Positions 1,545 through 14,290 of a stretch of DNA of 15,124 nucleotides are shown here, piece after piece (position 1 is the stretch's first letter; the number at the start of each line of letters is the position of its first letter). Origin of the DNA: a virus. Taxonomy: Duplodnaviria; Heunggongvirae; Uroviricota; Caudoviricetes. The notes below the pieces were generated by a model. The model was not told where the DNA came from and did no database searches. It saw nothing but the letters and a program-made list of their open reading frames with translations. The translations under genes were made by a program, and so were the position numbers. The DNA is taken from IMG/VR virus record IMGVR_UViG_2728369181_000009. One strand, written 5' to 3'.

Positions 1545-1563
1545 TTGGAGCGGCGAAGGGAAT
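1545..1563. repeat. Island-distal attachment-site direct repeat (partial copy of tRNA-Gly 3' end)
   Basis: TTGGAGCGGCGAAGGGAAT matches TTGGAGCGGGCGAAGGGAAT at 14216..14235 (3' end of glyU) with a single-base deletion in the G run. Confidence 0.75.
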
Positions 1564-1620
1564 AACACAACAAGCCACAAGACCAGTAATAAAGGCACAT
1601 TCGCGAGTTCTAAAATAGAT

Positions 1621-1644
1621 TCTATACACATTTCTATACACATT
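1621..1644. repeat. Tandem 12 bp direct repeat TCTATACACATT x2; motif recurs near the integrase end
   Basis: Two exact adjacent copies at 1621-1632 and 1633-1644. CTATACACAT recurs inverted at 14051-14060 (overlapping the int start codon) and CTATACAC direct at 14094-14101. Confidence 0.6.
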
Positions 1645-1674
1645 TATCACTCGCTTGGGAATTACACATCCCCT

Positions 1675-1735
1675 GTTATCCGTGATCAAGCTGGTGGATG
1701 ATCACGGATAACCGATATGGGAATCCCCATATCGG
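1675..1735. promoter_or_regulatory. Two adjacent perfect palindromes (14 bp arms with 10 bp spacer; 10 bp arms with 4 bp spacer); probable protein-binding or recombination-accessory sites
   Basis: GTTATCCGTGATCA (1675-1688) pairs with TGATCACGGATAAC (1699-1712). CCGATATGGG (1712-1721) pairs with CCCATATCGG (1726-1735). Confidence 0.45.
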
Positions 1736-1808
1736 CATCGCGTAGTTAATCGTAGTGGCTACCGTAGTAGTTGAGTAGCAGGATGTAACCTGCCAGGAAG
1801 GAAATGAT

Positions 1809-1844
1809 CGTGACTCGCCGTGACATGGCGTGATTAATCGTGAC
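1809..1844. repeat. Phased array of four CGTGA(C/T) direct repeats at exact 10 bp spacing
   Basis: CGTGAC at 1809, CGTGAC at 1819, CGTGAT at 1829, CGTGAC at 1839. The same hexamer forms the inner part of the palindrome arms at 1675-1712. Helical phasing suggests cooperative binding of a protein (Int arm sites, Xis/AlpA sites or a packaging-site array). Confidence 0.5.
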
Positions 1845-1885
1845 ACCAAACAAAAAGCCTTACCCGTAGACTTAATGTAAGGCTT
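1845..1885 (-). terminator. Rho-independent terminator for minus-strand transcription
   Basis: On the minus strand, a 9 bp stem AAGCCTTAC / GTAAGGCTT (1855-1863, 1877-1885) with a 13 nt loop is followed by TTTTTGTTTG. An alternative pairing GTAAGGC (1877-1883) with GCCTTAC (1893-1899) is also possible. Confidence 0.45.
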
Positions 1886-2640
1886 GGCTGTAGCCTTACC
1901 GAACGCTCCGCTCACCGTCGCAGCCTGTCCGGTTTCCGCCACTGATACGGCCTCACATCATCATGCTGGTGGCGTTCCTGTTGCAGCACAACGGAAACAG
2001 GCGCTGAACATCCGTTAAGTTTGCTTGCTGGTTACCGGGTTGAAATGGGTTAGTAGGGGGAGCGGTACGCATTCCACGTATCGGTTTCGTATCCGGTGGA
2101 TGTTCTGCGTACTTTTTTGCACAAGACCAGTAATGGCGGGCTTTCCGCTGGTATGCACTTTTCTTTTTGCGTACCACTTTTGCGCACTTTTTCAAGGTCG
2201 GCTCACAGATTCCCACCATTATGGGATCAGTTAAAGGGGCCGAACAAATCAATAGCTGTGGTGGTATCGTTTTGCATGTCAGGTTTTGACAGGTTTTTAT
2301 GGACTCCGAAAACTCACTGCACCAGATGTGCAATACATCGCGCTCATTTCGTTAACGTCGCGCGCGCGTACTTGTCGCAAAATGTCGCAAAATTTCGTCA
2401 TCGGACCAGAAATAAACCTTACTTCCCCGATGGGGTAATCTGTTACCGACGGTTTAACCGTCTGTGCCAGCAAAACGAAAGAATTTGCGGTTGACTTTAA
2501 GTCAGTCACAACACCCCATCTCACAGGCCGTGCCTTTCTAACTTTTTGCAATGCAATAAGTCAGGTAACGCTATGCGTTCCACCGTGTACACCGCGCCAG
2601 TAAAACCCCCAGATTCGTGGTTTTCCTGAATATCAGGAAT

Positions 2641-2931
2641 CTACCGCCGTAACCGTTCCGGCTTCTTCCACCGGTAAGTATTTTTCGCGCTCTCCCTCCG
2701 TTGTTGAGAACGGCGACGGCATGACAGCAATTCAAGAACCCTGATTCGTATGTCGCACATATCAGTGTCATTAAGCTGGATACCATCACGGCGCATCACC
2801 TCAGCCACCACACGCGCGTAATTTTCGGCGGTGACGGTATCCGGCTGCGTGGCCTCCTGTGTGCCTGTAGCCTGGCTGATTCCGGTAATACTGCGAATTA
2901 TCCCGAGTACTTCGGCTTCGGTCATTATCAT
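2641..2931 (-). CDS. Hypothetical protein, 96 aa, basic C-terminus; last gene of the metallopeptidase operon
   Basis: ORF with ATG at 2931, 35 bp downstream of the peptidase stop, with a weak RBS. The N-terminal two-thirds look protein-like; the Arg-rich tail is less certain. No recognisable motif. Confidence 0.35.
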   Translation of the reverse strand: MIMTEAEVLGIIRSITGISQATGTQEATQPDTVTAENYARVVAEVMRRDGIQLNDTDMCDIRIRVLELLSCRRRSQQRRESAKNTYRWKKPERLRR

Positions 2932-2966
2932 GGCCTAATAAATCGTCGAATGAGTTTGGCCGGGAG

Positions 2967-3638
2967 TTATTCCACCAGCAAAAATGGCGTAGCCCGGTCA
3001 ATGACGTTGATGCCGATTAGCGAGCTAACATTGCGACCATTAATAATGCTATCCCGTTCAAGCAAATGCGCTATTTTTTTCACTTCATACCAATATTGAG
3101 CCATGAGGGCTTTAGTCTTTTCAACAAGTTTAGAAAGCATTAACTCCCTGTTAGTTCGCTTATCTGTGGCGCAGATTAAATCGAGCATGTCATTTACGTT
3201 AGCCATGTCATAGCGATGAGGTAGTGAATACTTTTTGTTGAAAATATCGTTGTTTTCGTAAAGGGCTTCGCTTACTGGTCCGGCGAGGGATACAAAAGCG
3301 GCCTTTATTGCATCGCGCTTTATACCATCCGCGTAGTAACGTATGAAAGGGATAACTTTACCATCCCGCCCAACTACACCAGATTTACTATCCCGCAAAC
3401 GCCCGAGATCGTGGCTGTGAATTATGCTGTGTTTAACAACGCCCAAACACTTGGCCTCATGTACATGTTCGCCAGCAACGTAACCGTATTCATCCATAAC
3501 GGCGATAACCTGTACATCTAAGCGAATAAGCCATGCAGCTACTGCATGGCCCGCTTCGTGGAATGCTACACATCGTTTACCATCGCCTATCCAGTTATAG
3601 AACATTTCCTGCTCATATATCTGGTGAATGGCGCCCAT
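2967..3638 (-). CDS. Standalone zinc metallopeptidase, 223 aa, HEAGH motif (FtsH/M41-like or ImmA/IrrE-like), no ATPase domain
   Basis: Sequence FHEAGHAVAAWLIRLDVQVIAVMDEYG at residues 26-52 contains the HExxH zinc-binding motif in the HEAGHA form typical of FtsH-type protease domains. GAGGG RBS 8 nt upstream. Start ATG overlaps the upstream stop (TAATG). Family assignment is by motif recognition only. Confidence 0.55.
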   Translation of the reverse strand: MGAIHQIYEQEMFYNWIGDGKRCVAFHEAGHAVAAWLIRLDVQVIAVMDEYGYVAGEHVHEAKCLGVVKHSIIHSHDLGRLRDSKSGVVGRDGKVIPFIRYYADGIKRDAIKAAFVSLAGPVSEALYENNDIFNKKYSLPHRYDMANVNDMLDLICATDKRTNRELMLSKLVEKTKALMAQYWYEVKKIAHLLERDSIINGRNVSSLIGINVIDRATPFLLVE

Positions 3639-3814
3639 TACGCGCCCTCGCTTGCCAGTGAGGCCAGAGCCTTAGCCATGAGGCCGCGGGCAATCTGGTG
3701 AACGGTGGGAGCGACGCCGAGATTGGAGCGCTGGCGTTCACGTTCCTGAATGTTGCGTATGGCCTGCATCTGCTCGGCGGACAGCAGGACCGGCTTAACG
3801 TTTGGCTTTCTCAT
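3638..3814 (-). CDS. Small hypothetical protein, about 58 aa, possibly DNA-binding
   Basis: The six-frame ORF 3638..3907 overlaps the upstream gene by 113 bp. An internal ATG at 3814 (MRKPNVKPVLL...) has a GGAG RBS and lies 16 nt after the upstream TAA, so it is the likely start. Its stop overlaps the peptidase start. Confidence 0.4.
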   Translation of the reverse strand: MRKPNVKPVLLSAEQMQAIRNIQERERQRSNLGVAPTVHQIARGLMAKALASLASEGA

Positions 3815-3989
3815 TCTGTTCACTCCAGAACCGTGCATTTGATTCGTTGAGTTGCTGCAGGTTGCGACTCTGGCGATCGAAGTTATTGCGTGCCTTTGCC
3901 GCTTCAAGATCCTGACGGGTCAGCATCGGGCGGTGGGCGCGCTGTGGGTTGCCTGCGGCTAATTTCGGATCATAGATAGGCATGCTCAT
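3795..3989 (-). CDS. Small hypothetical protein, 64 aa
   Basis: ORF begins 6 nt after the stop of the 183 aa gene; hydrophilic, basic/Gln-rich. No recognisable motif. Confidence 0.4.
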   Translation of the reverse strand: MSMPIYDPKLAAGNPQRAHRPMLTRQDLEAAKARNNFDRQSRNLQQLNESNARFWSEQNEKAKR

Positions 3990-3995
3990 ATCTCT

Positions 3996-4547
3996 TTAGT
4001 GTTTTTTGCCCCAGAAGGTGGCGTTGTCAGCATTGATGCTGCGGATTGCGTCTCCTGTAGAAATTATTTTCGGAGCGATATTGTTTGCTTTCATGTAGTC
4101 GCCAACCTGCTCGAGTATATCGATAGCCTGATCCAGATGGATTTCTGACATTGGGTTAGGGTGTACGGCGCTGAACGCCTCAGCAGGGGCGTAGCGCAGC
4201 ACATCGAGCGCAACGATGCGCGGGTCGGCGTCGGGCAGTGCTGAATCGTATTTCGGCGCTACGGCACGTACCAGACGCATGAACTCAGCATTCATTGCTG
4301 TCGGTGCCGTGGAAGTAGCAGACGTGCCATTCAAACCGCGGGAAATCATATCGCTGTCGCGGGTGTACATGCGACGCAGGCGGTCGCCGGTGGCGATGCG
4401 CATTTTGCGTTCTTTCTCGAGTGTCGTTGCAAGACTTGCAATGATGGTCGCAACGGTTCCGCTGCACTGGAACTCCTCTTTACTGCCGTCGGCATACGTC
4501 ACCACGCCATCTTCGCCAGTCACTGCGATGTTTGTAATATCTTTCAT
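3996..4547 (-). CDS. Hypothetical protein, 183 aa; first gene of the five-gene operon
   Basis: ATG at 4547 with GAGG about 10 nt upstream. Preceded by an AT-rich promoter region and followed by four tightly linked genes. No family recognised; not obviously similar to P4 Sid, Delta or Psu as I recall them. Confidence 0.5.
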   Translation of the reverse strand: MKDITNIAVTGEDGVVTYADGSKEEFQCSGTVATIIASLATTLEKERKMRIATGDRLRRMYTRDSDMISRGLNGTSATSTAPTAMNAEFMRLVRAVAPKYDSALPDADPRIVALDVLRYAPAEAFSAVHPNPMSEIHLDQAIDILEQVGDYMKANNIAPKIISTGDAIRSINADNATFWGKKH

Positions 4548-4660
4548 CGGTCAGACCTCAGTATGTTCTATCGGATATTTATGTTTCATTAAACGCAATA
4601 ATGATATTTATTGTTGCAATTATTGCAATGTGTTTTTCTTGTGATAACATGCAAATTGAG
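4548..4660 (-). promoter_or_regulatory. AT-rich promoter/operator region of the five-gene operon, with perfect palindrome TTGCAAT-T-ATTGCAA
   Basis: 15 bp palindrome at 4614-4628 inside an AT-rich stretch, located between the tandem terminators (4705-4768) and the first operon gene. Flanked by inverted GACCTCA / TGAGGTC at 4554-4560 and 4658-4664. Confidence 0.45.
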
Positions 4661-4704
4661 GTCAGAACTCAATGAGTTGGTTCCAAACATGGTTACCGGT
4701 ACAC

Positions 4705-4736
4705 AAAAGCCCGTGCGTCTCCAGCGCGGGCTTTTT
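4705..4736. terminator. Bidirectional intrinsic terminator
   Basis: Stem AGCCCG / CGGGCT (4708-4713, 4727-4732) with extra inner pairs, flanked by AAAA on the left and TTTTT on the right. Confidence 0.45.
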
Positions 4737-4744
4737 ACTGGCAC

Positions 4745-4768
4745 AAAAAAGCCGGGAAAAATCCCGGC
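4745..4768 (-). terminator. Rho-independent terminator ending the replication-module transcript
   Basis: On the minus strand: GCCGGG, a 6 nt loop ATTTTT, CCCGGC, then TTTTTT. Lies 6 bp after the stop of the 95 aa gene. Confidence 0.6.
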
Positions 4769-4773
4769 CTCCG

Positions 4774-5061
4774 TCACTGACTGCAATTTTTCGATCCAGG
4801 GTATTTCCTGAATGCCTTACCATTGGGCTGATGTAATCCCATCCCGGCATGTGCCCGGCTGATGGTTTTGCGCATCTCCCCGAAATTATCCTGCCTTGCT
4901 GGTGGGCGTGCTGCCTTGTGGATACATTCCGCGCGACGTTTTGCCGCCTGCTCCCGTGCCTTGTCATCATTCGCCAGCATGATGACCTCAGCCCACCGCG
5001 CCGCCGCTCTCCGGTACAGACCACGCGCTTCCAGAGCTTCCGCTTTGCTGTCGTGAATCAT
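4774..5061 (-). CDS. Small helical protein, 95 aa, ANR-like (AraC-negative-regulator family) signature
   Basis: Start ATG overlaps the FinO-like stop (ATGA). N-terminal KAEALEARGLYRRAAARWAEV matches my recollection of the ANR family motif (Y..AA..W). Assignment is tentative. Confidence 0.45.
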   Translation of the reverse strand: MIHDSKAEALEARGLYRRAAARWAEVIMLANDDKAREQAAKRRAECIHKAARPPARQDNFGEMRKTISRAHAGMGLHQPNGKAFRKYPGSKNCSQ

Positions 5062-5600
5062 GCGCCTGTTTTCTCCTTTGCTGCCCGACGCTGACGTTTG
5101 CGTTTCTCATTCAGCGCAACCAGCCGCGTTTCTGCGTCCTGTTGTTCCTGTGGTGTCACCTCGCCGCACGGCTGGCATTTCAGGTCGTAGCGTACCCCAC
5201 CAGCCATTAAGGCGCGGTAATAGCGCGGACACTGCGCATAAGATGCCAGCGTCGCACGCAATGCCCCTGGCCCGAATGCCAGCCCCCTGACGGCGAGATC
5301 CTGCATCAGGTCGTCGAATATCCCCACCTTAAGCGGCTTCGGTGCTTCCCGGCTGAATAATTCAGGCCACAACTCAGTGAGGCGGTTAACGCGTCTGCGG
5401 TTTTTTCGCTGCCGTTTGGTCATATGCCGCCACGGTGTTGCCCCTGTGGGCTTCTGCTGCGCTTTCTGGTTACCGGGCATCACTTTATGCGCCGATGTGG
5501 TTTTATCCTGCTGCTGCGCCGCCTGCGTCGTTTTCTGCGGCGTGCCGTAAATACCTTTTGGTTTTCTGTTAATGGTCAGCTTAGTCATGCTTTGCCCCAT
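5058..5600 (-). CDS. FinO/ProQ-domain RNA-binding protein, about 176-180 aa
   Basis: Basic disordered N-terminus (KRQRKNRRRVNRL) followed by LTELWPELFS...PKPLKVGIFDDLMQDLAVRG...LRATLASYAQCPRYYRALMAGGVRYDLKCQPCGEV, which closely parallels the FinO core and the ProQ N-terminal domain (PLKIGIFQDL...RYDLDGNPCGE). An internal ATG at 5588 with a GGGG SD is the likelier start. Confidence 0.7.
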   Translation of the reverse strand: MGQSMTKLTINRKPKGIYGTPQKTTQAAQQQDKTTSAHKVMPGNQKAQQKPTGATPWRHMTKRQRKNRRRVNRLTELWPELFSREAPKPLKVGIFDDLMQDLAVRGLAFGPGALRATLASYAQCPRYYRALMAGGVRYDLKCQPCGEVTPQEQQDAETRLVALNEKRKRQRRAAKEKTGA

Positions 5601-5606
5601 CGTTAC

Positions 5607-5944
5607 AACTGTCTACCAACTGTCTACCGATATAATTGATTGATTTATTTAATGTTATTAACACATAACAAAAAAACAATCTGCAAACTGTCTACCAACG
5701 GTCTACCGCATTAATACATTGATAATTAATGATTTTTACTAAATGGTAGACAGTGTAGACAGTTAAAAGAGAAATTTAAAAAATGCCCCCTTAACTATCT
5801 GTTTTTTATATACCCCCCGTGGTGTAGGAATATAGAAATAACTGTCTACCTCTCTACCACATTGAAAATATCTTTATAATTCAAAATATTAATTGGTAGA
5901 TGGTTGGTAGAGGGTTAAGTGAATCTGTCTACCAACCGTCTACC
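5607..5944. repeat. Replication origin with iterons: at least 10 copies of (A/C)(A/C)C(T/G)GTCTACC in both orientations, separated by AT-rich spacers
   Basis: AACTGTCTACC at 5607, 5618, 5686 and 5840; AACGGTCTACC at 5697; AACCGTCTACC at 5934; CTGTCTACC at 5925; inverted GGTAGACAG / TGTAGACAG at 5745-5762; GGTAGATGG / GGTAGAGGG at 5895-5912. Directly 3' of the primase gene. Confidence 0.7.
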
Positions 5945-5971
5945 TTTACGTTTCAGCTTATAAATTTCGTA

Positions 5972-7777
5972 TTATGTTCTGTCGTTAATCCCTGTAGCTG
6001 CTGGCAACCAGCCATCAGCATCATCATCTAACAGAACATTTGTTATCACTCGCCCTTTATCCGGGCCTTTAGTGCATTTAGCCCGCTTATACTCCTTTCC
6101 GTATTCCGCCATAGCTCCTGGCATATCAGTACCAAAGCGTGTCAGTGATACTGGTTTTCCCAGGCCATGCGCTGACATATAGGCTAAATAAGCATGATAC
6201 AGGTATCGCCTCGGGCTAAATGGCACTATTTCCGCATTGCCCACCATCATTCCTTCACATTTAACCAACGACATCAGATAGCCGCAAAAGTCCACCAGTG
6301 AATCACCTTCGCGCTTTATCAACAGCGCTTCTTCTGATTTTTGCTGCTCATAAAGTAGTCTTTTAGCTTCGTCCTGGTCGGTAAATCGTGTTAGCAAATG
6401 GCGAATCACTACCGCCAGTTCGCCTTCTATCTTTTCCGCCAGCATGGGATCGCGTTCGTTCTCCGGTACGACCTCAGAGAAATTAAATATCACCCTACGA
6501 CGCGAGATCCCCCCGCTTCGGTCACTGAATGACATGGCGTTATTGTTTACCGCAAGCACTACTGCCGGAATACGTGTGGAGTAGGGGGCTTTATGTTTCG
6601 GATCAATTGCCACCTTGTCGCCGCCAGTAATTGCCTTAATTCCTGCACCATCGCCAGCGTAGCGAGTCATATCCGGCATGATAATCAGCGAAAAGCCAAC
6701 TACTAACGCGCGTTCCCTTGCGTCTTCCAGAGCCTTCATGCTTGCCGATACTGTGTTGGCCTTACCCGCCAGCATGGTACAAATCTCAGCCATCACACTT
6801 TTACCGCTTCCGCCTGGGCCTGTTACCTCAAGGAATAACTGCCAGTCGTACCGGTTCGCCAGTACCATGAATAATGCCGCCAGTACGCGATCAGCTTTAC
6901 GCTCATTATCTGCCACCGAACGACGCAGCCACTTCCAGAAATTCGGCGCATGTGTTGCCAGCGTTTCCCCCTCTGCTGGTGGGCTGAACGGTAATTCACT
7001 GGCATTTAACAACCAGTCATTTTTGTTATGCTCCCGAAAATTTCCCGTCCGGGTATCAAATACCCCGTTACTGAATCCAATAAGATTCCTGTCTGCCCCG
7101 CCCATAACAGGCAGGCTCAATTTCATTGTGTCTACGGCAAATTTAATGGCGTTTTGCGAATAACTGATTCCAGCATCAATAAAAATCTTCGCCATAGACC
7201 GCTGGAGTTCCTTATCAGATACAGGCACCCAGACAATTCCGTTGTAATGGTGAACTACATCAGAATCATCATTTATAGCCAGTGCTCTTCCATAATATTC
7301 AAGTAACACTTCCCCTCTCTGGCTGGCTCCCATCTGATTTAGTGCTGGCCTGGATAGGTCAATATTTTTTGTGGCTAATTTCATCGCTGAAACTTCCCCA
7401 CTCTCTGCCTGTTCGCGGATCCGTTGCAGGTAGTCGCGCCAGTTTTCCGGCTCCCGGTCGGTGATACCTTTGTATAATTTCGCGTCCTGTACACCAGCCA
7501 GCGCCAGCTTTTCAGCAATAGCATTGATCTGGATTGGCTCTATCTCCCCCGCGAGATAGACACGCGCAAAGCGACGTTCATCGTCGACAATGCGGATATT
7601 CGCCAGGTCTGCCAGTTGCTTTGGCCCCAGGTAAACAGGAGGCACGTTATCGCCGTGTTTTCGTCCTTCGCTTTCAATCCAGTGTTGAGCATGGGCGTAA
7701 GCATCCGTCCCGGCAAAAATGATTACCTCGGTGAATTTATCCTTCGGCTGATATTTTAAATTCGGTGCGTTTTTCAC
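5972..7777 (-). CDS. Replication primase/helicase, 601 aa (P4 alpha-like; P4-family primase C-terminal NTPase domain)
   Basis: Walker A motif VTGPGGSGKS in the C-terminal half, an N-terminal primase-like region, size and position upstream of the iterons. Start overlaps the upstream gene stop (ATGA). Confidence 0.8.
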   Translation of the reverse strand: MKNAPNLKYQPKDKFTEVIIFAGTDAYAHAQHWIESEGRKHGDNVPPVYLGPKQLADLANIRIVDDERRFARVYLAGEIEPIQINAIAEKLALAGVQDAKLYKGITDREPENWRDYLQRIREQAESGEVSAMKLATKNIDLSRPALNQMGASQRGEVLLEYYGRALAINDDSDVVHHYNGIVWVPVSDKELQRSMAKIFIDAGISYSQNAIKFAVDTMKLSLPVMGGADRNLIGFSNGVFDTRTGNFREHNKNDWLLNASELPFSPPAEGETLATHAPNFWKWLRRSVADNERKADRVLAALFMVLANRYDWQLFLEVTGPGGSGKSVMAEICTMLAGKANTVSASMKALEDARERALVVGFSLIIMPDMTRYAGDGAGIKAITGGDKVAIDPKHKAPYSTRIPAVVLAVNNNAMSFSDRSGGISRRRVIFNFSEVVPENERDPMLAEKIEGELAVVIRHLLTRFTDQDEAKRLLYEQQKSEEALLIKREGDSLVDFCGYLMSLVKCEGMMVGNAEIVPFSPRRYLYHAYLAYMSAHGLGKPVSLTRFGTDMPGAMAEYGKEYKRAKCTKGPDKGRVITNVLLDDDADGWLPAATGINDRT

Positions 7778-8064
7778 TTCTTACCTCCCGCAACCAACAT
7801 TGCCCGGATTTTTTTAATATTCGTGGCTGCACGTCTCGCCACTGCCTGTTGTTTGTTTTCCACCAGAATAAAATCACGCTCAAACTGACGGCGCGGCATT
7901 ACGCAGTCATATTCGTAAGCCTCACGGCGGTAGGTGATATTGCCTGGCGTAACGTGACGAATAACCACCCGTCCCCCGCGTCTGGTGTCCCGGAAAATAT
8001 CACCGGGGCGGATTTCAGGCCGAGAGAGGCCGCTGGCAGTAAAGCCAGAATTTTTCTTTTTCAT
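7774..8064 (-). CDS. Hypothetical small protein, 96 aa
   Basis: ORF translationally coupled to the primase gene; basic and protein-like. No family recognised. Confidence 0.45.
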   Translation of the reverse strand: MKKKNSGFTASGLSRPEIRPGDIFRDTRRGGRVVIRHVTPGNITYRREAYEYDCVMPRRQFERDFILVENKQQAVARRAATNIKKIRAMLVAGGKK

Positions 8065-8068
8065 GGTT

Positions 8069-8269
8069 TTATTTTCCTGTCAGCAGTTCCGGTTTTATTT
8101 CCGCACGAATACAAAGTTCAGAAAAAAATTCAGGAGAACCAACAATCTCATTACTTTTCAGTCGGCATTGTGATTTCACTTTCCCTTTATCCAGGTAAAC
8201 CAGCACGCGTCCGGTGAAATCATCTGGCACATTAAGCACTACGGGTACATGCGCTTCATGATTATGCAT
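8069..8269 (-). CDS. Hypothetical small protein, 66 aa
   Basis: ATG with GGAGG RBS; start overlaps the upstream stop (ATGCATAA). Confidence 0.45.
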   Translation of the reverse strand: MHNHEAHVPVVLNVPDDFTGRVLVYLDKGKVKSQCRLKSNEIVGSPEFFSELCIRAEIKPELLTGK

Positions 8270-8495
8270 GGCTTACATCCTCCAGAGATTTTCTTCTGTA
8301 ACGCGTCTCTGCCACATATTCAGCATAGTCCGACGCAATACTAAGAATCATTTCACCCTCTGACTTGTAGCCACTGGTATTGATAAGAAAATATGCAGCT
8401 TTCATCATGTCAGCAATGCTCAACAATGCGCCCGATGTATCTTCCGGTGCGCCATCAAACTCCTGTTTCAGGGAATTAAAACGATCATCACGCAT
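8262..8495 (-). CDS. Hypothetical small protein, 77 aa
   Basis: 8 bp start/stop overlaps with both neighbours; protein-like composition. Confidence 0.45.
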   Translation of the reverse strand: MRDDRFNSLKQEFDGAPEDTSGALLSIADMMKAAYFLINTSGYKSEGEMILSIASDYAEYVAETRYRRKSLEDVSHA

Positions 8496-8871
8496 GTTTA
8501 CCCCCCTGAATGACCTGATAACCGCAACTGGTCAGCAATTCGATAAATTCCGGCAGTGTGCCGAAACAGCAATCATCACGCAGACGTTCGCAGGATACTT
8601 CAACGCCGTTTTCGTAGTGACTCACCATACACCCGGTAAAATGCAGATCATCATCGTGATGGCACGTTGACGGCTTAATCAGTCGCGCACGTTCCGCCAG
8701 CTCCAGCAATGCTTCAACGCTTCCGGCAATTGCACCATCCGGCAGGTGATAATTACTTACCACGCGTCCATTCTCCACGTTGACCAGTAGCTGCCCGGAA
8801 AATATCTCGTCAAACTGAATGCTGTTAAGGTCAGAAATTGACAGGTTATGCATGGTGCACCTCCTGTACAT
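8488..8871 (-). CDS. Hypothetical protein, 121-127 aa
   Basis: ORF in the coupled operon; alternative start at 8853 (MHNLSISD...). No family recognised. Confidence 0.45.
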   Translation of the reverse strand: MYRRCTMHNLSISDLNSIQFDEIFSGQLLVNVENGRVVSNYHLPDGAIAGSVEALLELAERARLIKPSTCHHDDDLHFTGCMVSHYENGVEVSCERLRDDCCFGTLPEFIELLTSCGYQVIQGGKHA

Positions 8872-9070
8872 CAGCCATGATAATTTTTCCGGCCTTATCC
8901 AGTGCCTGATCGGCTTTCAGCTGCACAAATGCTAAATAATGGGAGATGCATTCTGATTCTCTGGCTGCGTGTTTATGCGCCACACCAGCGATAGCAGAAA
9001 TCTCAATAAGTGAATCCATCAGCGTTTTGATAGCGTCTACCGCTGCATCAGGCCATGTTGCATTACACAT
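8846..9070 (-). CDS. Hypothetical small protein, 74 aa
   Basis: ORF in the coupled operon, overlapping its upstream neighbour by 8 bp. Confidence 0.4.
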   Translation of the reverse strand: MCNATWPDAAVDAIKTLMDSLIEISAIAGVAHKHAARESECISHYLAFVQLKADQALDKAGKIIMADVQEVHHA

Positions 9071-9428
9071 GCTCCACCTCCTGGCGAATACGGGCAGCGA
9101 ATACCATCACGCAGCCATCAGGAGATTGCTGGCGTGCTTCCTGTTCGCTGGTGGCCTCGATGTGAATCACGCGCGGTTGTGCCGTACTCAGGGCGATAAA
9201 ACGCCAGATAAAATTGTTTTCGCATTTCTGAATAAACAGCGTGTTTTCTTCGCGCCCTTTCCATGTTGCCGAGATATAGCCCATGTCATTGAGCATCTCG
9301 CAGGCATCAACCAGCGTATCGGCGGCTACGTGTACAGTGTTTTTACCGTCAGCAATGCAATCACGGTGCACCGCCAGGAAGGTGTATATAAATTTAGGGT
9401 GAGTTTGGGTATGCTGTGTTCCAGCCAT
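9063..9428 (-). CDS. Hypothetical protein, 121 aa; first gene of the leftward early operon
   Basis: Internal ATG at 9428 (MAGTQHTQTHPKF...) with GAGG RBS 7 nt upstream. This is the protein-like C-terminal segment of the artefactual 528 aa ORF and sits directly downstream of the palindromic operator. Confidence 0.5.
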   Translation of the reverse strand: MAGTQHTQTHPKFIYTFLAVHRDCIADGKNTVHVAADTLVDACEMLNDMGYISATWKGREENTLFIQKCENNFIWRFIALSTAQPRVIHIEATSEQEARQQSPDGCVMVFAARIRQEVEHV

Positions 9429-9494
9429 AATCGTTACCTCGTTTAACGGTTTGGTTAGACGCCCTGCATGTGTGCCACCACTGCGGGGCGTTGC

Positions 9495-9527
9495 TGTATA
9501 TACACCACAACAATTGGTGTATATACA
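9495..9527. promoter_or_regulatory. Perfect 13 bp inverted repeat operator (TGTATATACACCA, 7 bp spacer, TGGTGTATATACA) in the divergent control region
   Basis: Read directly from the sequence. Related half-sites ACACC-TTTT-GGTGT (9570-9583) and palindrome GTGTACAC (9587-9594) follow. Lies between the divergent starts at 9428 (-) and 9619 (+). Confidence 0.6.
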
Positions 9528-9618
9528 AATTAAATTTAAGTGTGCTACAGTGTCAAGTGTTTTATCAACACACCTTTTGGTGTAATGTGTACACACCTCA
9601 AAATAACCGGACATTCTG

Positions 9619-9924
9619 ATGGCAACAGGAAACATCAACAGCAGATCGCAAATGAAAAATATCCGCTTCCCCCATGATGTAATCGAGGAAATGGAAAATT
9701 CGAAAACGGAAGGGGAAACAATAGCCGCTTTCGTGATTACAGCCGTTCGCGGTGAAATCGCCCGCCGCCAGGCAGAAGGAAGCGGAGAAAATCCCCTGGT
9801 TTCTTCGCTCGATGCCCTAGCGCAGGTGGAAAAAATCGGAGTCAAAGCTGCCGAGGAAATCGGGCAACTCGTCACCGTCGCGCGTGAAGAACTCCAGCGG
9901 CGCAAAGCTAAAGAGCAGGAATAA
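9619..9924 (+). CDS. Ribbon-helix-helix (Arc/Mnt/CopG-like) DNA-binding protein, 90-101 aa; candidate island repressor
   Basis: From the second ATG (9652): MKNIRFPHDVIEEMENSKTEGETIAAFVITAVRGEI fits the RHH pattern (beta strand, helix A, G-x-T turn, helix B), followed by a charged helical tail. One of only two plus-strand genes in the island, divergent from the early operon. No strong SD at either start. Confidence 0.55.
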   Translation: MATGNINSRSQMKNIRFPHDVIEEMENSKTEGETIAAFVITAVRGEIARRQAEGSGENPLVSSLDALAQVEKIGVKAAEEIGQLVTVAREELQRRKAKEQE

Positions 9925-9933
9925 CCACTATAG

Positions 9934-10182
9934 GTGCCGTGGTGTGAGGAACTACGGTGCATTATTTTACAGGGCAGCGCCATGACCAACAAAGAATCAA
10001 CCAATACACCATCACCGGCACGGAAAAAACAGCGCAGAAAGATAGCGTACGAGCATGAGTCAGACAGATTCGCGCCCTGTGCGTTTGTCCTTGAGAAATT
10101 CCTTAAAGAGTACAGGTGCACAAAAATGGGGTCGCATACCTGGAAAACATCGCGGCATGGCAATGTTAAAGAGCAGGAATAG
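9934..10182 (+). CDS. Small basic protein, 66-82 aa, co-oriented with the RHH gene
   Basis: ORF with GTG at 9934 or ATG at 9982; ends in KEQE-stop on the same 15 bp sequence as the RHH gene. Coding status is moderate. Confidence 0.35.
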   Translation: MPWCEELRCIILQGSAMTNKESTNTPSPARKKQRRKIAYEHESDRFAPCAFVLEKFLKEYRCTKMGSHTWKTSRHGNVKEQE

Positions 10183-10649
10183 CCCACCAGCAAGCCAGCA
10201 TATTCACCATAATGACCCTCAGTTAAACATAGAGTCATTGGTGCAAAGCTGACACATTGCCCACCAGCCGCAAATCTGGCATTGTTGGCGATGCGTTCAA
10301 GTATGTAGCTTTCCCACTGGCGGCCCTCTGCGGTCGCCTTTGTTTTATCCAGAACGAAATCAGACATCAGATTGATCAGCACCTGGCGACCTGACAAAAT
10401 CGCATCAGTCGCGCCACCAGCAAAATTTTTTGCTTTCCGGACAGTGTGACCAACGACATTTTGCAGCAAAATATTCTGCATTTCTGGCGTGCTGTAGTAA
10501 CGGTGATCAGCGCCTTCACTCTGTGCGACCACAACGCTATAATCTGCCTCGTAGACAGTAAGCAATATGGCGCAGTAGGCTATTCGTTCACAAAGGCGCT
10601 CCGGCAACGGGGCGCTTTCTCTTTTTGTAACGGTCAGAGCGTTACACAT
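10183..10649 (-). CDS. Hypothetical protein (about 150 aa protein-like segment) with no in-frame stop before running antisense into the RHH module
   Basis: ATG at 10649 overlaps the AntA-like stop by 8 bp and the first ~150 codons look protein-like. The frame then stays open through the antisense of 9619..10182 (Cys/Ser/Arg-rich junk) to 9063. The 3' end is undefined; a disrupted gene or artefact is possible. Confidence 0.3.
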
Positions 10650-11442
10650 GGCTGTTTTCCTCCATGCGACGGGCTAACCAACGTTGCGAAAGACGAATTA
10701 ATTCAGCTTTCCGCTGGTGGTAGTCCTGGCCTAACTCAATCAGCGTGATATTGCTCTGCTCAAGGTAAGAAAGGTGCTCAAGCTGCAACGTGCTCATGTG
10801 GTCGCGTGGTTCGCCTGTGATGCCGTTCGCCTGCGCCCACTGTTTTGCAGTCATGCCACCCAGCACGATACGCGCCAGCATATTGGCTTCCGTGGTGTAG
10901 TGGTGCTGTAGAGTGTTTTTACCCAGTTCAGCCCGGTACGCCTCCAGCGCGGCGCACATCGGCTTAAAGTAGCTGGCAACGGTGATACGGGCTTTCAGTT
11001 CCCGGCGTAACGCTGCGGAACGCACTGGCGCTACCTTGTGTAGCTCCTCCTCGCATTTGATGAAGTACTGGCGAACGGCGCGGCCCTGTTCGGTGCGTTC
11101 GACCATCGCCAGTTCTTTCGCCATGTTCACGGTAATGATGTACTCAAGAGCTGTTTGCTGGCGAGATTTTGCGCTCACCGGATCGGGTCGGCTCAAATAT
11201 TCAACAACCTCATAATCCACGCTTTCCGTGAAGCCGTATTCTTCAATGCGCCCCTTGATCCACGAACGGAAAACGCGCCCTACACCTAACGCCTTATGCA
11301 ACGCTCTGGCGCTAACAATATTGGTTTCACGCCTGCCAATAACGCCAGAAATAACCGGGATAATTTCGCCGAAATTTTGTTGGCTCTGGTTTTCAGGCCG
11401 AACGAAGCCCTGCCCCTGTACGGGCGTTTTTCGCAGTTTCAT
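10642..11442 (-). CDS. AntA-domain phage antirepressor-like protein, 266 aa
   Basis: Segment ISARALHKALGVGRVFRSWIKGRIEEYGFTESVDYEVV matches the AntA/AntB N-terminal domain signature. AGGAG RBS 6 nt upstream of the ATG. Confidence 0.6.
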   Translation of the reverse strand: MKLRKTPVQGQGFVRPENQSQQNFGEIIPVISGVIGRRETNIVSARALHKALGVGRVFRSWIKGRIEEYGFTESVDYEVVEYLSRPDPVSAKSRQQTALEYIITVNMAKELAMVERTEQGRAVRQYFIKCEEELHKVAPVRSAALRRELKARITVASYFKPMCAALEAYRAELGKNTLQHHYTTEANMLARIVLGGMTAKQWAQANGITGEPRDHMSTLQLEHLSYLEQSNITLIELGQDYHQRKAELIRLSQRWLARRMEENSHV

Positions 11443-11519
11443 AAAAACTCCTGCTATCGAATTAAGTTACTTTTATTTGCTGGTGGATAGCTGGTGGCAA
11501 TAGCCCCGTAGCCATTTAA

Positions 11520-11717
11520 TCAGGTAGCTGTTCCGCGTGATTCCGCAATACGCTGATTAATCCACTCGTCAATTTCACTCTCAACGAAAGCAATAGCTCG
11601 CGAGCCAATTTTAACTGATGCAGGAAATTTACCTTGCCCCATAAGGCGATAAATCCATGCCTTGCTATATCCAGTTCTACGCTGAACTTCTGTTAAACGA
11701 ATAAGCGTATTTGACAT
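11520..11717 (-). CDS. alpA: AlpA-family transcriptional regulator / excisionase-like, 65 aa
   Basis: IRLTEVQRRTGYSKAWIYRLMGQGKFPASVKIGSRAIAFVESEIDEWINQR has the AlpA/MerR-type HTH pattern of CP4-57 AlpA. GAGGT RBS. Placed downstream of a P4-type int gene. Confidence 0.85.
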   Translation of the reverse strand: MSNTLIRLTEVQRRTGYSKAWIYRLMGQGKFPASVKIGSRAIAFVESEIDEWINQRIAESRGTAT

Positions 11718-11786
11718 ATATTTACCTCATAACGTCTACTCAATTTGACGAGGTAATCCTGGCACAGAAATAACGAATATTTTCAT

Positions 11787-11896
11787 ACCCTCAGGCCTAA
11801 TGGTTACCGGAAGGAAATTAACCCTAAGGGTGATGGTAAAATTGACGGGGAAGATAAAAAAATACCCTCAGGGTAACAGTAAATCACCCTCAGGGT
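11787..11896. promoter_or_regulatory. Four copies of near-palindromic ACCCT(C/A)AGG(G/C)(T/C) in the alpA upstream region
   Basis: ACCCTCAGGCC at 11787-11797, ACCCTAAGGGT at 11821-11831, ACCCTCAGGGT at 11864-11874 and 11886-11896, each followed by a GGTA-containing tail. All lie between the stop of the 265 aa gene and alpA. Confidence 0.55.
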
Positions 11897-11911
11897 ATGC
11901 GGTATGGTGCG

Positions 11912-12709
11912 TTAATCCGGCTTTGCGTTCTTTTGGCTGTTGTCTCGGTTAATAGGGCAGGCAGTCCTCTCTATGAGCGTTGCAAGTGCATTACTTGCCC
12001 CCCACTGCTTAAGCTCCCTGGTTATCGCTTCTTGATTTCCCCTGGTGGCAAAATCATTTTCTGGATCGTAATTGGCCCACTCTCTGTTTCTAATCTCAAT
12101 AGCCTTAGCTAATGGGTCTTTATCCCAGTATTTATATAAGTGTATCGGGCGCTCTTGCTCTAACTGCTCTATCCTTGCCCTTAACTCTGCGTTTTCTTTT
12201 TCCAGCATTGCGATTTGGGATAATAAATCATCCTCTGTACGCAACTCTTTCTTTTCAATATCGCGTCCTTGTGCCTCGTCATTTTCAGAAGAGTTAGCGC
12301 CTTCCAGCTTCGTTAACGCGTCAAGGACATCGGGAAAAATTGCGAAAATTTCACCCCTTATAAATCCAATGTTCTCAAATTCGGGATCTTCCCAATAACC
12401 GGACACCAGAAAACCATTTTCATCCCTCTCACCAGGTAAACAACCACGTTTCCGAACCGCATTCAGATTTCTATAAAGAACATCATAATCAAATTCATCC
12501 CGATACGGGTTACAAAAAGATTCCAACAGCTTAAATTCATTTACTGTGTACAGGCGGATATGTTCTCCGCTTATTCTCCTGAGTATCCAAGTTATGACAT
12601 CTGAAACATCATAATCATCACCAGCGACCTTAAGCACGACCTCAAGAAATTCACGTAAAGAAATAAAATCTTTTTTGTATTCGTTTAATTCGGCATGAAT
12701 ATCAATCAT
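11912..12709 (-). CDS. Hypothetical acidic protein with central coiled coil, about 265 aa; accessory gene between int and alpA
   Basis: ATG at 12709 with GAGGTG RBS 6 nt upstream (the track ORF starts two codons earlier at GTG 12715). Asp/Glu-rich, with a heptad-like segment LLSQIAMLEKENAELRARIEQLEQER. No catalytic motif seen. Confidence 0.55.
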   Translation of the reverse strand: MIDIHAELNEYKKDFISLREFLEVVLKVAGDDYDVSDVITWILRRISGEHIRLYTVNEFKLLESFCNPYRDEFDYDVLYRNLNAVRKRGCLPGERDENGFLVSGYWEDPEFENIGFIRGEIFAIFPDVLDALTKLEGANSSENDEAQGRDIEKKELRTEDDLLSQIAMLEKENAELRARIEQLEQERPIHLYKYWDKDPLAKAIEIRNREWANYDPENDFATRGNQEAITRELKQWGASNALATLIERTACPINRDNSQKNAKPD

Positions 12710-12837
12710 ACGCACACCTCAGCGTCCTCTACTGTAGTGGCTGTACCAGTCCGTCGAGGTGTACGGATTTTCGGGAGCGACCCTAGACACAGACTTTTCT
12801 TTCGTCGCTCAAAGTCTACTACTGTATACGCAACCAG

Positions 12838-14052
12838 TCATCCACATTTTCCGAACTTGCCATGCACCACGTTACCGCCATGTTCGAGCGAATCCATATA
12901 GTCGGCGTACCACTGTAGCATCTCGCGCCGCCCGTCCAGATATTGCGCATGGTTGTACGTGCCACGAATTGAGTTTTTATCGACGTGCGCGAGCTGCGTT
13001 TCTATCCACGCAGTGTTATAGCCCTGCTCATGCAAAATGGTGCTCATGGTGTGCCGGAATCCATGACCAGTAACGCGCCCGGCATAGCCGATACGACGAA
13101 TGAGCACATTCATCGCCATTTCACTCATTGGCTTACTGTGGCGAATACGACCGGGGAAAATAAACTGATACTGGCCTGTCATGTTTTTTAACTGCTCCAG
13201 TATTTTTATTGCCTGTTCTGGTAATGGCACGCAATGCGGACGGCGCATCTTCATTCGTTCTTTAGGCACTTCCCACAAACGATTATCAAAATCGATCTCC
13301 CGCCATTCTGCCTGCCGTAATTCCCCGGGTCTGACACCTGTCAGAATTAATAACCGCATTGCCAGTTTGACGATCTGGCTTCCGGTGTACGTATTAAAAA
13401 CGCGAAAAAATTCCGGCAGTTCGTCGGCCTTCAAATAGGCGTAATGCTCTTTTTTATGTGGAGCAAATGCGCTCACCAGGTCAGGGGCTGGATTATATTC
13501 AGCGCGTCCGGTGATGATTGCGTACCGGAACACCTCGCCGCATCGCTGGCGAACCTTACGCAATTTTTCAGTCGCACCACGGTCGTTAAGACGGGAAAGA
13601 ACCGCCAGCAATTCCATCGGCTTAATTTCTGCGATCGGCCTTGCGCCAATGTACGGAAAAACGTCTTTTTCAAACGTCTCGATCATTTCCTCGGCGTATG
13701 ACGATGACCACCTGTCGATCCGCTTTTCGTACCATTCGCGAGCGATACCCTCAAAAGTATTGCCAAATTTGCTCGCCTGTTCTCGCTTTTGGGCTTTTCT
13801 GGCCTCACTTGGATTTATACCACCAATAAGAAGCCTTTTAGCCTCATCCCTTGCAGCCCTGGCATCAGACAGAGACACATCAGGGTACACGCCCAACGAC
13901 AACATTTTGGGCTTTCCTGCAAACCTGTAGCGCAGTCGCCACCCTTTCGAACCGTTCGGCTCAATGAGCAACGAAAGCCCGTTACCGTCATTGAGCGTAT
14001 AAGCCTTTTCTTTCGGCTTCGCACGCCTGATAGCAAGGTCTGAAAGCAGCAT
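12838..14052 (-). CDS. int: P4-family tyrosine integrase, about 404 aa
   Basis: N-terminal LNDGNGLSLLIEPNGSKGWRLRYRF arm-binding-type domain; C-terminal catalytic residues (R in VRPGELRQ, HGFRHT, Y in GTYNHAQY). Adjacent to the tRNA 3' end. The ATG at 14052 (MLLSDLA...) is preferred over the upstream in-frame ATG at 14091. Confidence 0.9.
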   Translation of the reverse strand: MLLSDLAIRRAKPKEKAYTLNDGNGLSLLIEPNGSKGWRLRYRFAGKPKMLSLGVYPDVSLSDARAARDEAKRLLIGGINPSEARKAQKREQASKFGNTFEGIAREWYEKRIDRWSSSYAEEMIETFEKDVFPYIGARPIAEIKPMELLAVLSRLNDRGATEKLRKVRQRCGEVFRYAIITGRAEYNPAPDLVSAFAPHKKEHYAYLKADELPEFFRVFNTYTGSQIVKLAMRLLILTGVRPGELRQAEWREIDFDNRLWEVPKERMKMRRPHCVPLPEQAIKILEQLKNMTGQYQFIFPGRIRHSKPMSEMAMNVLIRRIGYAGRVTGHGFRHTMSTILHEQGYNTAWIETQLAHVDKNSIRGTYNHAQYLDGRREMLQWYADYMDSLEHGGNVVHGKFGKCG

Positions 14053-14127
14053 GTGTATAGCTCCAAAAAATAAATTTTGTCCTATACGCATTACTATACA
14101 CTTCTGTGTGTAGATTCTGGTAGTTGT

Positions 14128-14202
14128 GAGTAGACGTTAATAAACTATGAAAATGGCTGGAAGGCTTGATATTCGTGGGTTTGATGGACTTTAGTAGACG
14201 TT
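14128..14202. promoter_or_regulatory. int promoter / attachment-arm region with two direct copies of AGTAGACGTT
   Basis: GAGTAGACGTT at 14128-14138 and TAGTAGACGTT at 14192-14202. A third copy of AGTAGACGTT lies in inverted orientation at 11731-11740, in the alpA leader. Confidence 0.45.
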
Positions 14203-14216
14203 GAGAAATGTTTGTT

Positions 14217-14290
14217 TGGAGCGGGCGAAGGGAATCGAACCCTCGTATAGAGCTTGGGAAGCTCTCGTTCTACCATTGAACTACGCCCGC
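14217..14290 (-). tRNA. glyU: tRNA-Gly (anticodon CCC)
   Basis: Reverse complement reads GCGGGCGTAGTTCAATGGTAGAACGAGAGCTTCCCAAGCTCTATACGAGGGTTCGATTCCCTTCGCCCGCTCCA, 74 nt, with cloverleaf, CCC anticodon in loop CTTCCCAAG, and encoded CCA. Confidence 0.95.

Follow-up and report, generated by a model that had tools for sequence, protein, structure and literature searches.

The question raised by positions 2,641 to 4,660 of the virus record IMGVR_UViG_2728369181_000009 (15,124 nucleotides, the whole of which is called the window here) is whether the five closely spaced genes found there form one self-contained system. The initial annotation, made from the sequence alone, took them for a zinc protease with three small partners, in a module for defence, interference or derepression at the variable end of a satellite. 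The location holds: the genes lie after terminators in what is, judged by gene order, the late zone of a 12.7-kb Gram-negative phage-inducible chromosomal island (PICI), next to a published immune hotspot (PMC11364771). The self-contained system is not supported. Compared with related loci, the five genes are a mosaic of a shared leader (g183, g64 and g58), a swappable protease cargo (g223) and a common end gene (g96), and the gene that tracks the protease best is none of its small neighbours; it encodes a lipoprotein and is absent from the window. The reading of the late zone as a mosaic PICI operon, with the protease as interchangeable cargo, is given a probability of about 0.6.

Gene order and coupling

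The five genes, designated by the length of their products in amino acids (aa), are as follows.

3996–4547, minus strand: g183, 183 aa, the first gene of the late zone
3795–3989, minus strand: g64, 64 aa
3638–3814, minus strand: g58, 58 aa
2967–3638, minus strand: g223, the protease, 223 aa
2641–2931, minus strand: g96, 96 aa

All five open reading frames described earlier are present and tightly coupled. g183 and g64 are separated by 6 nt, g64 and g58 overlap by 20 nt, g58 and the protease gene share one base (TAATG), and a gap of 35 nt lies between the protease gene and g96. A mechanical list of open reading frames has g58 as an 89-aa version with a TTG start; the family alignment and the RefSeq entries for near-identical loci favour the 58-aa form. 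The ratio of non-synonymous to synonymous substitution rates (dN/dS) against homologues, 0.04–0.46, indicates purifying selection on all five genes; g58 is the most constrained (0.04–0.14), and g64 has values of 0.13–0.26.

Modular assortment of the late genes

Homologues of g183 (41–76% identity) are located directly after the primase gene in PICIs and helper-embedded PICIs of Klebsiella, Enterobacter, Rahnella, Hafnia and E. coli. g64 travels with g183, and g58 is translationally coupled to whichever cargo comes next. In the collected loci (L numbers), Dit, baseplate and spike genes come after g183, which may or may not be accompanied by g64 and g58, in L007, L009–L011, L019 and L027/L028; in L020, the g183 module precedes a neck-like gene. 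In PICIs that lack g183 and g64, g58 is followed by genes for P22-type ejection proteins (L029/L030) or a tape-measure protein (L031/L032). The protease gene is likewise found with g58 only (L014/L015), after a gene for single-stranded DNA-binding protein (L016 and Dickeya L005) and, in Yersinia L033, as a homologue of 25% identity standing alone after the primase gene. Sequence identities are mosaic as well: relative to L021, the window has 98% identity in g58, 84% in the protease, 62% in g64 and 72% in g183; relative to L014, it has 96% in the protease and 67% in g58.

The end gene has a much wider distribution. Relatives of g96, the product of which has a basic C-terminus and matches phrog_1561 (E = 8e-47), occur in 898 of 5,426 complete E. 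coli genomes as the last PICI gene. In the capsid-encoding PICIs L017 and L018, g96 directly follows TerS-like genes, and in distant relatives the late zone closes with a shorter version of 62 aa. It lies outside the block that moves between islands (see below). On this distribution, g96 is a generic terminal gene of many Gram-negative PICIs and not part of a mobile cassette.

In 50,697 GenBank phage records, tblastn matched none of g183, g96, the protease and the lipoprotein; an AntA control matched 805 records. The late-zone genes are therefore better regarded as satellite genes than as captured phage genes. This bears on a morphogenetic or packaging role, in which the protease would process a helper virion protein (capsid, tail or ejection) to form satellite particles. 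The structural genes that occupy the same slot elsewhere, from Dit and baseplate to neck-like genes, and the TerS-like genes that follow in relatives are consistent with such a role. It is nevertheless unlikely, given the lack of any homologue in the phage genomes and the presence of the protease gene beside int in two E. coli strains, DEC5B and E2348/69. To our knowledge, known prohead proteases also belong to other families.

The lipoprotein companion and its deletion

2936/2937: deletion junction, a precise absence of 1,178 bp relative to the closest relative, L001 (12438–13615)

L001 is 99% identical to the window, and its additional 1,178 bp, located between the protease gene and g96, constitute a frameshifted gene for a lipoprotein of about 352 aa. 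An intact copy is present in E. coli O55:H7 DEC5B (L035, 7866–8924), where the predicted lipoprotein has the lipobox LTGC and the five-gene operon has a terminator directly after it. The lipoprotein gene occurs in 16 of the 5,426 E. coli genomes, always with the protease gene on the same element; in 13 of the 16 it lies immediately downstream of the protease gene, and in the other three, which are helper-embedded PICIs, it lies in the 5′ part and the protease gene in the late zone. The two genes are neighbours in Dickeya too, as in Yersinia (25% and 36% identity), and are present in non-adjacent positions in Klebsiella L008 and in the unassigned metagenome and viral contigs L003 and L022/L023. 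Klebsiella PICIs L007 and L009, which have the same g183, carry neither gene. No lipoprotein gene without the protease was seen in the E. coli genomes and collected loci; the protease without the lipoprotein is common. Because the lipoprotein is never seen alone, its pairing with the protease is the best-supported functional one: the real partner of the protease appears to be this lipoprotein and not the three small neighbours proposed earlier. The window protease is, by comparison with L001, an orphan from which the usual companion has been cleanly deleted. The lipoprotein itself has no Pfam, PHROG, PDB or phage match, and its only PADLOC match, at 14.9 bits, is at chance level.

The pairing suggests a two-gene module, either toxin/antidote-like or acting by abortive infection or exclusion, in which the lipoprotein would be an envelope effector that the protease keeps in check or matures; the window would then retain a harmless orphan half. 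The asymmetry described above, a companion never found without the protease and a protease often found alone, is typical of a dependent, possibly toxic partner. The state of the glyU-PICI lineage, with the lipoprotein gene frameshifted in L001 and deleted in the window, and the termination of the DEC5B operon directly after this gene point in the same direction. An accessory enhancer, however, would leave a similar asymmetry; no domain can be recognised in the lipoprotein, the two genes are not adjacent in helper-embedded PICIs, and it is not obvious in what way a protease in the cytosol could act on a lipoprotein that is exported. The module, which overlaps with a role of the protease as a phage-directed effector (discussed below), is thus a possibility to be held with some doubt. 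Its extended form, in which the protease and the lipoprotein would be a new satellite-borne two-component anti-phage system (abortive infection or exclusion) and the leader and promoter dyad a common expression chassis, is somewhat more doubtful still.

Mosaic operon or dedicated system

g183, g64, g58 and the protease gene, together with the promoter and the upstream terminator, are present at 96% DNA identity or more in 21 of the 5,426 genomes. Several observations weigh against reading these genes as a mosaic with interchangeable cargo. The same four-gene block, with its promoter, lies beside int in a different island (yicC/dinD; E2348/69 and O55:H7 DEC5B), so that it can behave as a cassette. 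In Rahnella, homologues of g183 and of the protease co-occur at identities down to 41% and 24%, respectively. The movement of the block and this co-occurrence would fit a dedicated multi-gene system too. Neither the five proteins nor distant protease homologues have a match at E ≤ 0.1 in PADLOC-DB v2. The two structure models have low confidence (predicted local distance difference test, pLDDT, of 58.8 for g223 and 65.2), and fold searches with them are uninformative; the AlphaFold2 model of g223 falls below 50 in its N-terminal 74 residues, and Foldseek found nothing significant for it. Finally, without its lipoprotein, the window protease could be a non-functional remnant, yet protease-only lineages have a dN/dS of 0.15.

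A single dedicated five-gene system for defence, interference or derepression, with the protease working together with its small neighbours, would account for the tight coupling behind one promoter after terminators, for the joint movement of four of the five genes into another island and for the location in a PICI hotspot. It is improbable, more so than the morphogenetic role, because g96 is generic and outside the mobile block, the leader precedes unrelated cargo, the protease occurs without the leader genes and PADLOC matches are nil. Of the five-gene operon described in the initial annotation, the run from g183 to the protease gene stands, being found with its promoter in a second island, and g96 has to be set apart; the five genes are not one evolutionary unit.

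A stand-alone FtsH-type protease

The zinc motif HEAGHA of g223 is located at residues 27–32 (H27-E28-A-G-H31), and the HEXXH core is invariant across the protease family except in one N-terminally recombined variant. Taken singly, g223 stays below the family thresholds, with 20.3 bits against a cut-off of 29.9 for Pfam PF01434, where the match covers only residues 21–41 around the motif, and 15 bits against a cut-off of 600 for TIGR01241; remote members of its family reach 28–30 bits with Pfam M41. With phmmer, residues 20–209 align to the protease domain of AFG3L2. An exhaustive profile search yielded 131 representative clusters (50% identity), nearly all of them stand-alone proteins of 150–280 aa with the pattern 'xAYHEAGHAVAA...LAGPxAE...D'; no full-length FtsH is among these clusters.

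A family profile of 50 sequences, with the window g223 as the first row, matches 15 solved chains of FtsH, YME1 and AFG3L2 (E = 3e-18 to 1e-10). In these alignments, H27, E28 and H31, the segment L118-AGPVSE-124 and D144 are in register with the HEXXH motif of FtsH, its 'LGGRAAE' segment and the aspartate zinc ligand of 'NDIE'. Since all catalytic segments align with the solved FtsH structures, g223 can be taken for a complete, apparently catalytically competent FtsH-type (M41-like) protease domain, which spans residues ~20–210 and lacks an AAA+ module, a transmembrane segment and a signal peptide. The stand-alone HEAGHA protease without AAA+ that had been recognised by eye is thus corroborated by the family profile, with the best match at E = 3e-18. 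Of the peptidase families put forward for it, M41 is reached through this profile, the single sequence falling short, and M78 (PF06114, which includes ImmA) gave no Pfam match. The RefSeq label for the protein is 'peptidase M41 family protein'.

The HEAGH motif, the LAGPxAE segment, the aspartate as third ligand and the C-terminal helical part are thus shared with FtsH, YME1 and AFG3L2. FtsH differs in possessing an AAA+ ATPase, a transmembrane anchor and a periplasmic domain, all absent from g223; g223, in turn, is satellite-encoded and belongs to a separate clade of 150–280-aa stand-alone proteins below the Pfam gathering score. FtsH domains without AAA+ are expected to cut only unfolded or flexible segments, unless an unfoldase is recruited. 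FtsH controls lambda CII, and one conceivable role of an AAA-less domain is to co-assemble or compete with the host FtsH hexamer, altering CII/CIII turnover and biasing lambdoid phages. Such a role would be allowed by the homology, which takes in the FtsH protease domain from end to end, C-terminal helices included; the proposal is inference throughout, g223 and FtsH have very little identity, and of all the roles weighed here this is the least probable.

A search of viral contigs with the protease gave only four close loci, and searches of genome contigs with two family members for distant relatives gave no confirmed locus. No paper on stand-alone M41 proteases in satellites or in defence was found in a literature search, nor was a published function for the protease, the leader trio, the dyad or the lipoprotein. 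One E. coli variant, P0022 (27 member sequences on 66 contigs; e.g., NZ_JALDNN010000001.1, 3030859–3031401), has its first ~45 residues, including HEAGH, swapped for an AntA/B N-terminus, apparently through an internal deletion in decayed PICIs.

Leader genes, promoter and dyad

g183 has a conserved C-terminal helical domain at about residues 85–160. The NCBI label 'XRE family transcriptional regulator' for this protein is unsupported by any Pfam, NCBIfam or PDB result, and Pfam and profile scans found no helix–turn–helix (HTH) profile in g183, g64 or g58. A ribbon–helix–helix (RHH) fold had been considered for g58 from a beta-alpha-alpha pattern seen by eye; comparison of the family profile with the PDB and Pfam scans of each member gave nothing in its favour. 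An N-x-x-N-A-x-F-W-like motif is common to residues 44–58 of g64 and 163–182 of g183 (also L003, 6756–6923), with W179 invariant among the g183 proteins. The likeness between g64 and the g183 tail is weak (BLAST E ~0.3) and may reflect a common docking motif or chance.

The signals ahead of the leader are the following.

4705–4735 and 4751–4768, minus strand: two tandem intrinsic terminators, inverted repeats (hairpins) with T-runs, downstream of a PerC-like gene
4628–4601, minus strand: sigma-70-like late-zone promoter, −35 TTGCAA, 16 nt, −10 TATCAT
4614–4628: perfect palindrome TTGCAAT-T-ATTGCAA, overlapping the promoter; putative operator
4427–4441: second TTGCA-N5-TGCAA site (TTGCAAGACTTGCAA), inside the g183 coding sequence, +113 from its ATG

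Both the palindrome at the operon's own promoter and the tandem terminators closing the replication module were found as described. The terminators end the PerC-like and ProQ/FinO genes that come after the primase gene, and all relatives in the upstream alignment retain the inner one, at 4705–4735 (AAAAGCCCG...CGGGCTTTT), on the 5′ border of the g183 unit.

The left arm of the dyad serves as the −35 hexamer, with weaker, half-matching copies at a distance of about 28 nt. TTGCA-N5-TGCAA was counted 14 times in the 495 kb of related loci, where 0.47 occurrences are expected. In seven loci (L019–L021 and L025–L028), the g183 proteins of which are only 62–76% identical, it lies at a fixed distance of −44 from the g183 ATG. 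This excess and the fixed position in diverged loci show that its recurrence is more than chance. In the window and L001 the distance is −74, and the E2348/69 copy has one mismatch. The dyad also opens the late operon of the ATCC 25922 PICI (L018, 10390–10404), which has neither the protease nor g183 or g58. Among the g183 loci, the more distant ones (L003, L007, L010 and L012) have another conserved promoter. The dyad thus looks like a promoter-operator common to PICI late zones, and presumably serves as the operator for a dimeric regulator common to these satellites. The second site, within g183, is conserved in L001, L002 and L019; coding constraint could account for its conservation.

A protease beside small proteins and a dyad also calls to mind ImmA-like derepression, in which the protease would cleave a repressor of the helper prophage or of the satellite and g183 or g58 would bind the palindrome. 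Like the anti-repressor proteases ImmA/IrrE (M78) of phages and ICEs, g223 is a small, predicted cytosolic HEXXH metalloprotease on a mobile element with small putative regulators adjacent to it, and the 'XRE family' label of g183 would fit. ImmA/IrrE, however, belong to a different peptidase family from the M41-type g223, which has no M78 match and no demonstrable HTH partner, g183 and g58 matching no HTH or RHH profile; the dyad is present in L018 without these genes, and the slot is interchangeable, with tail genes taking the place of the protease. A mechanism of this kind is quite improbable, slightly more so than a dedicated five-gene system.

Possible role of the protease

If the late zone is a mosaic operon, its working could be pictured as follows. 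The terminators would insulate it from the AlpA/primase operon, and the sigma-70-type promoter, with its −35 hexamer embedded in the TTGCA-N5-TGCAA dyad, would drive its expression. g183, g64 and g58 would be a conserved leader module ahead of a cargo slot translationally coupled to g58, the slot being filled here by a putatively cytosolic, AAA-less FtsH-type zinc protease, and g96 would close the operon as a generic terminal PICI gene. On expression of the operon, the protease might cut a phage protein, or a host protein of relevance to phages, within a stretch that is unfolded or flexible, and such cleavage might serve the satellite as helper interference or as defence against competing phages. 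We infer regulation through the dyad, the protease target and the phenotype. That the protease is a phage-directed effector, in defence or helper interference, is a tentative proposal, a little short of an even chance.

Relation to known PICI systems

The absence of any likeness to Sid, Delta, Psu, terminase or capsid proteins, noted by eye at the outset, stands: searches of Pfam, PHROG, NCBIfam and the PDB, in which homology to packaging and capsid-redirection proteins was sought, gave no match of the five products to any of these or to Rpp/TerS, and PADLOC models were likewise negative. The five products match no characterised PHROG family and, apart from FtsH, no solved structure.

Gram-negative PICIs follow a four-zone plan of Integration, Bro, Replication and Late, as set out by Tommasini, Mageeney and Williams (2023, PMC10111431), and the island agrees with this plan. 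The late zones described there resemble the present one in following the replication zone, in being co-oriented and in their dynamic content, which in sister elements includes captured helper late genes; the Klebsiella and Enterobacter helper-embedded PICIs treated there carry g183 homologues. The gene-content section of that paper has no description of a g183-g64-g58 leader, a dyad operator or a protease/lipoprotein cargo.

As He et al. (2024, PMC11364771) showed, PICIs carry immune genes beside pri and also at both the 5′ and the 3′ end. The late-zone genes share with the immune hotspot of that study the slot downstream of pri, and the four-gene block is found in the int-proximal slot as well. 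Homologues of the Tai (tail assembly inhibition) proteins are for the most part carried by phages (phi80 orf63 type; He et al. 2024, PMC11364771); the late-zone genes differ in having no phage match, a distinction drawn indirectly, from the phage records.

The Rpp proteins RppA and RppC, winged-HTH proteins of 144–153 aa that redirect packaging, likewise have their genes in the late region of E. coli PICIs (PMC6739421). The five products differ from them, matching neither the solved RppC nor any TerS profile. Rpp/cos packaging was considered for the island and set aside; no Rpp-like protein is among the products, and the window contains no lambda cosN within two mismatches.

The island and its borders

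14217–14290: tRNA-Gly(CCC)
5972–7777, minus strand: P4-type primase, upstream of the late zone
5058–5600, minus strand: ProQ/FinO-like protein, upstream of the late zone
4774–5061, minus strand: PerC-family protein, upstream of the late zone
1547–1563: probable attR (TGGAGCGGCGAAGGGAAT), degenerate repeat of the 3′ end of tRNA-Gly (14217–14235)

Judged by its gene order and borders, the island in the window is a Gram-negative PICI, a phage satellite, located in an E. coli chromosome at tRNA-Gly(CCC). It extends over 12.7 kb (~1547–14235) between the tRNA gene and the att copy. The probable attR repeats the 3′ end of tRNA-Gly in degenerate form over 18 nt, of which 12 nt form an exact core; no exact att repeat longer than 12 nt was found in the window, a longer match requiring one indel. 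The genes are co-oriented, comprising integrase, the int-alpA RNA, AlpA, AntA/B, an Icd-like gene, DUF4222, the P4-type primase, the ProQ/FinO-like gene and the PerC-family gene, and no phage structural or lysis genes are among the annotated genes of the island. The co-oriented int-alpA-(Bro/AntA)-primase order, the size within about 10–15 kb and an att flanked by direct repeats agree with the definition of a PICI.

The int-alpA RNA (Rfam RF02996; 12726–12793, minus strand; 40.3 bits against a gathering score of 35.8) is located between the integrase gene and a gene for a 267-aa protein, as expected for such islands. The latter gene (11912–12715, minus strand), the product of which has no Pfam match, fills the 5′ accessory slot of int-alpA; in related islands the protein encoded in this slot varies (316 aa in L015, 281 in L016 and 239 in L014). 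The int-proximal 5′ accessory slot is another published PICI hotspot for immune genes (PMC11364771).

In the Bro/regulatory part, about 1.16 kb (9210–10372) is missing from the 97–99% identical relative L001 and may be a small inserted module. It contains two plus-strand open reading frames, 9619–9924, with a weak Rv0623-like/PSK_trans_fac match, and 9934–10182. A 528-aa minus-strand frame (9063–10649) has no Pfam match and looks spurious.

At the far end, between g96 and attR, lie about 1.1 kb that are apparently non-coding (1564–2640), and a pac or cos site might be located there. Of the other PICIs with g96, L001 alone conserves this stretch; in the equivalent region of L001, RefSeq marks one pseudogene fragment. 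In some relatives, a gene for a protein of 169–171 aa with a TerS/Nu1-like N-terminal HTH (phrog_57, E = 1e-10) is located between the protease gene and a g96-like gene (L004, 4019–4534; L012, 11390–11899; L008, 11957–12472); the window has no copy.

Implications for PICI biology

Enterobacterial pathogens harbour PICIs in abundance, and it is becoming apparent that the variable slots of these islands serve as reservoirs of anti-phage genes. The stand-alone FtsH-type protease family, with its 131 clusters at 50% identity, provides a testable handle on one such slot. Natural 'knock-outs' of the candidate protease–lipoprotein module are at hand as well: the window, without the lipoprotein; L001, with the gene frameshifted; and DEC5B, with the module intact. 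Should the protease turn out to have no phage phenotype, it would be merely another uncharacterised satellite cargo gene. If the two-component anti-phage system is real, an envelope lipoprotein would be under the control of a cytosolic protease or be triggered along with it. The leader and operator seem to drive whichever cargo a PICI holds, which could explain how late-zone and hotspot genes are regulated; if so, Enterobacterales PICIs would deploy interchangeable anti-phage or helper-manipulating cargo from a common leader and operator chassis.

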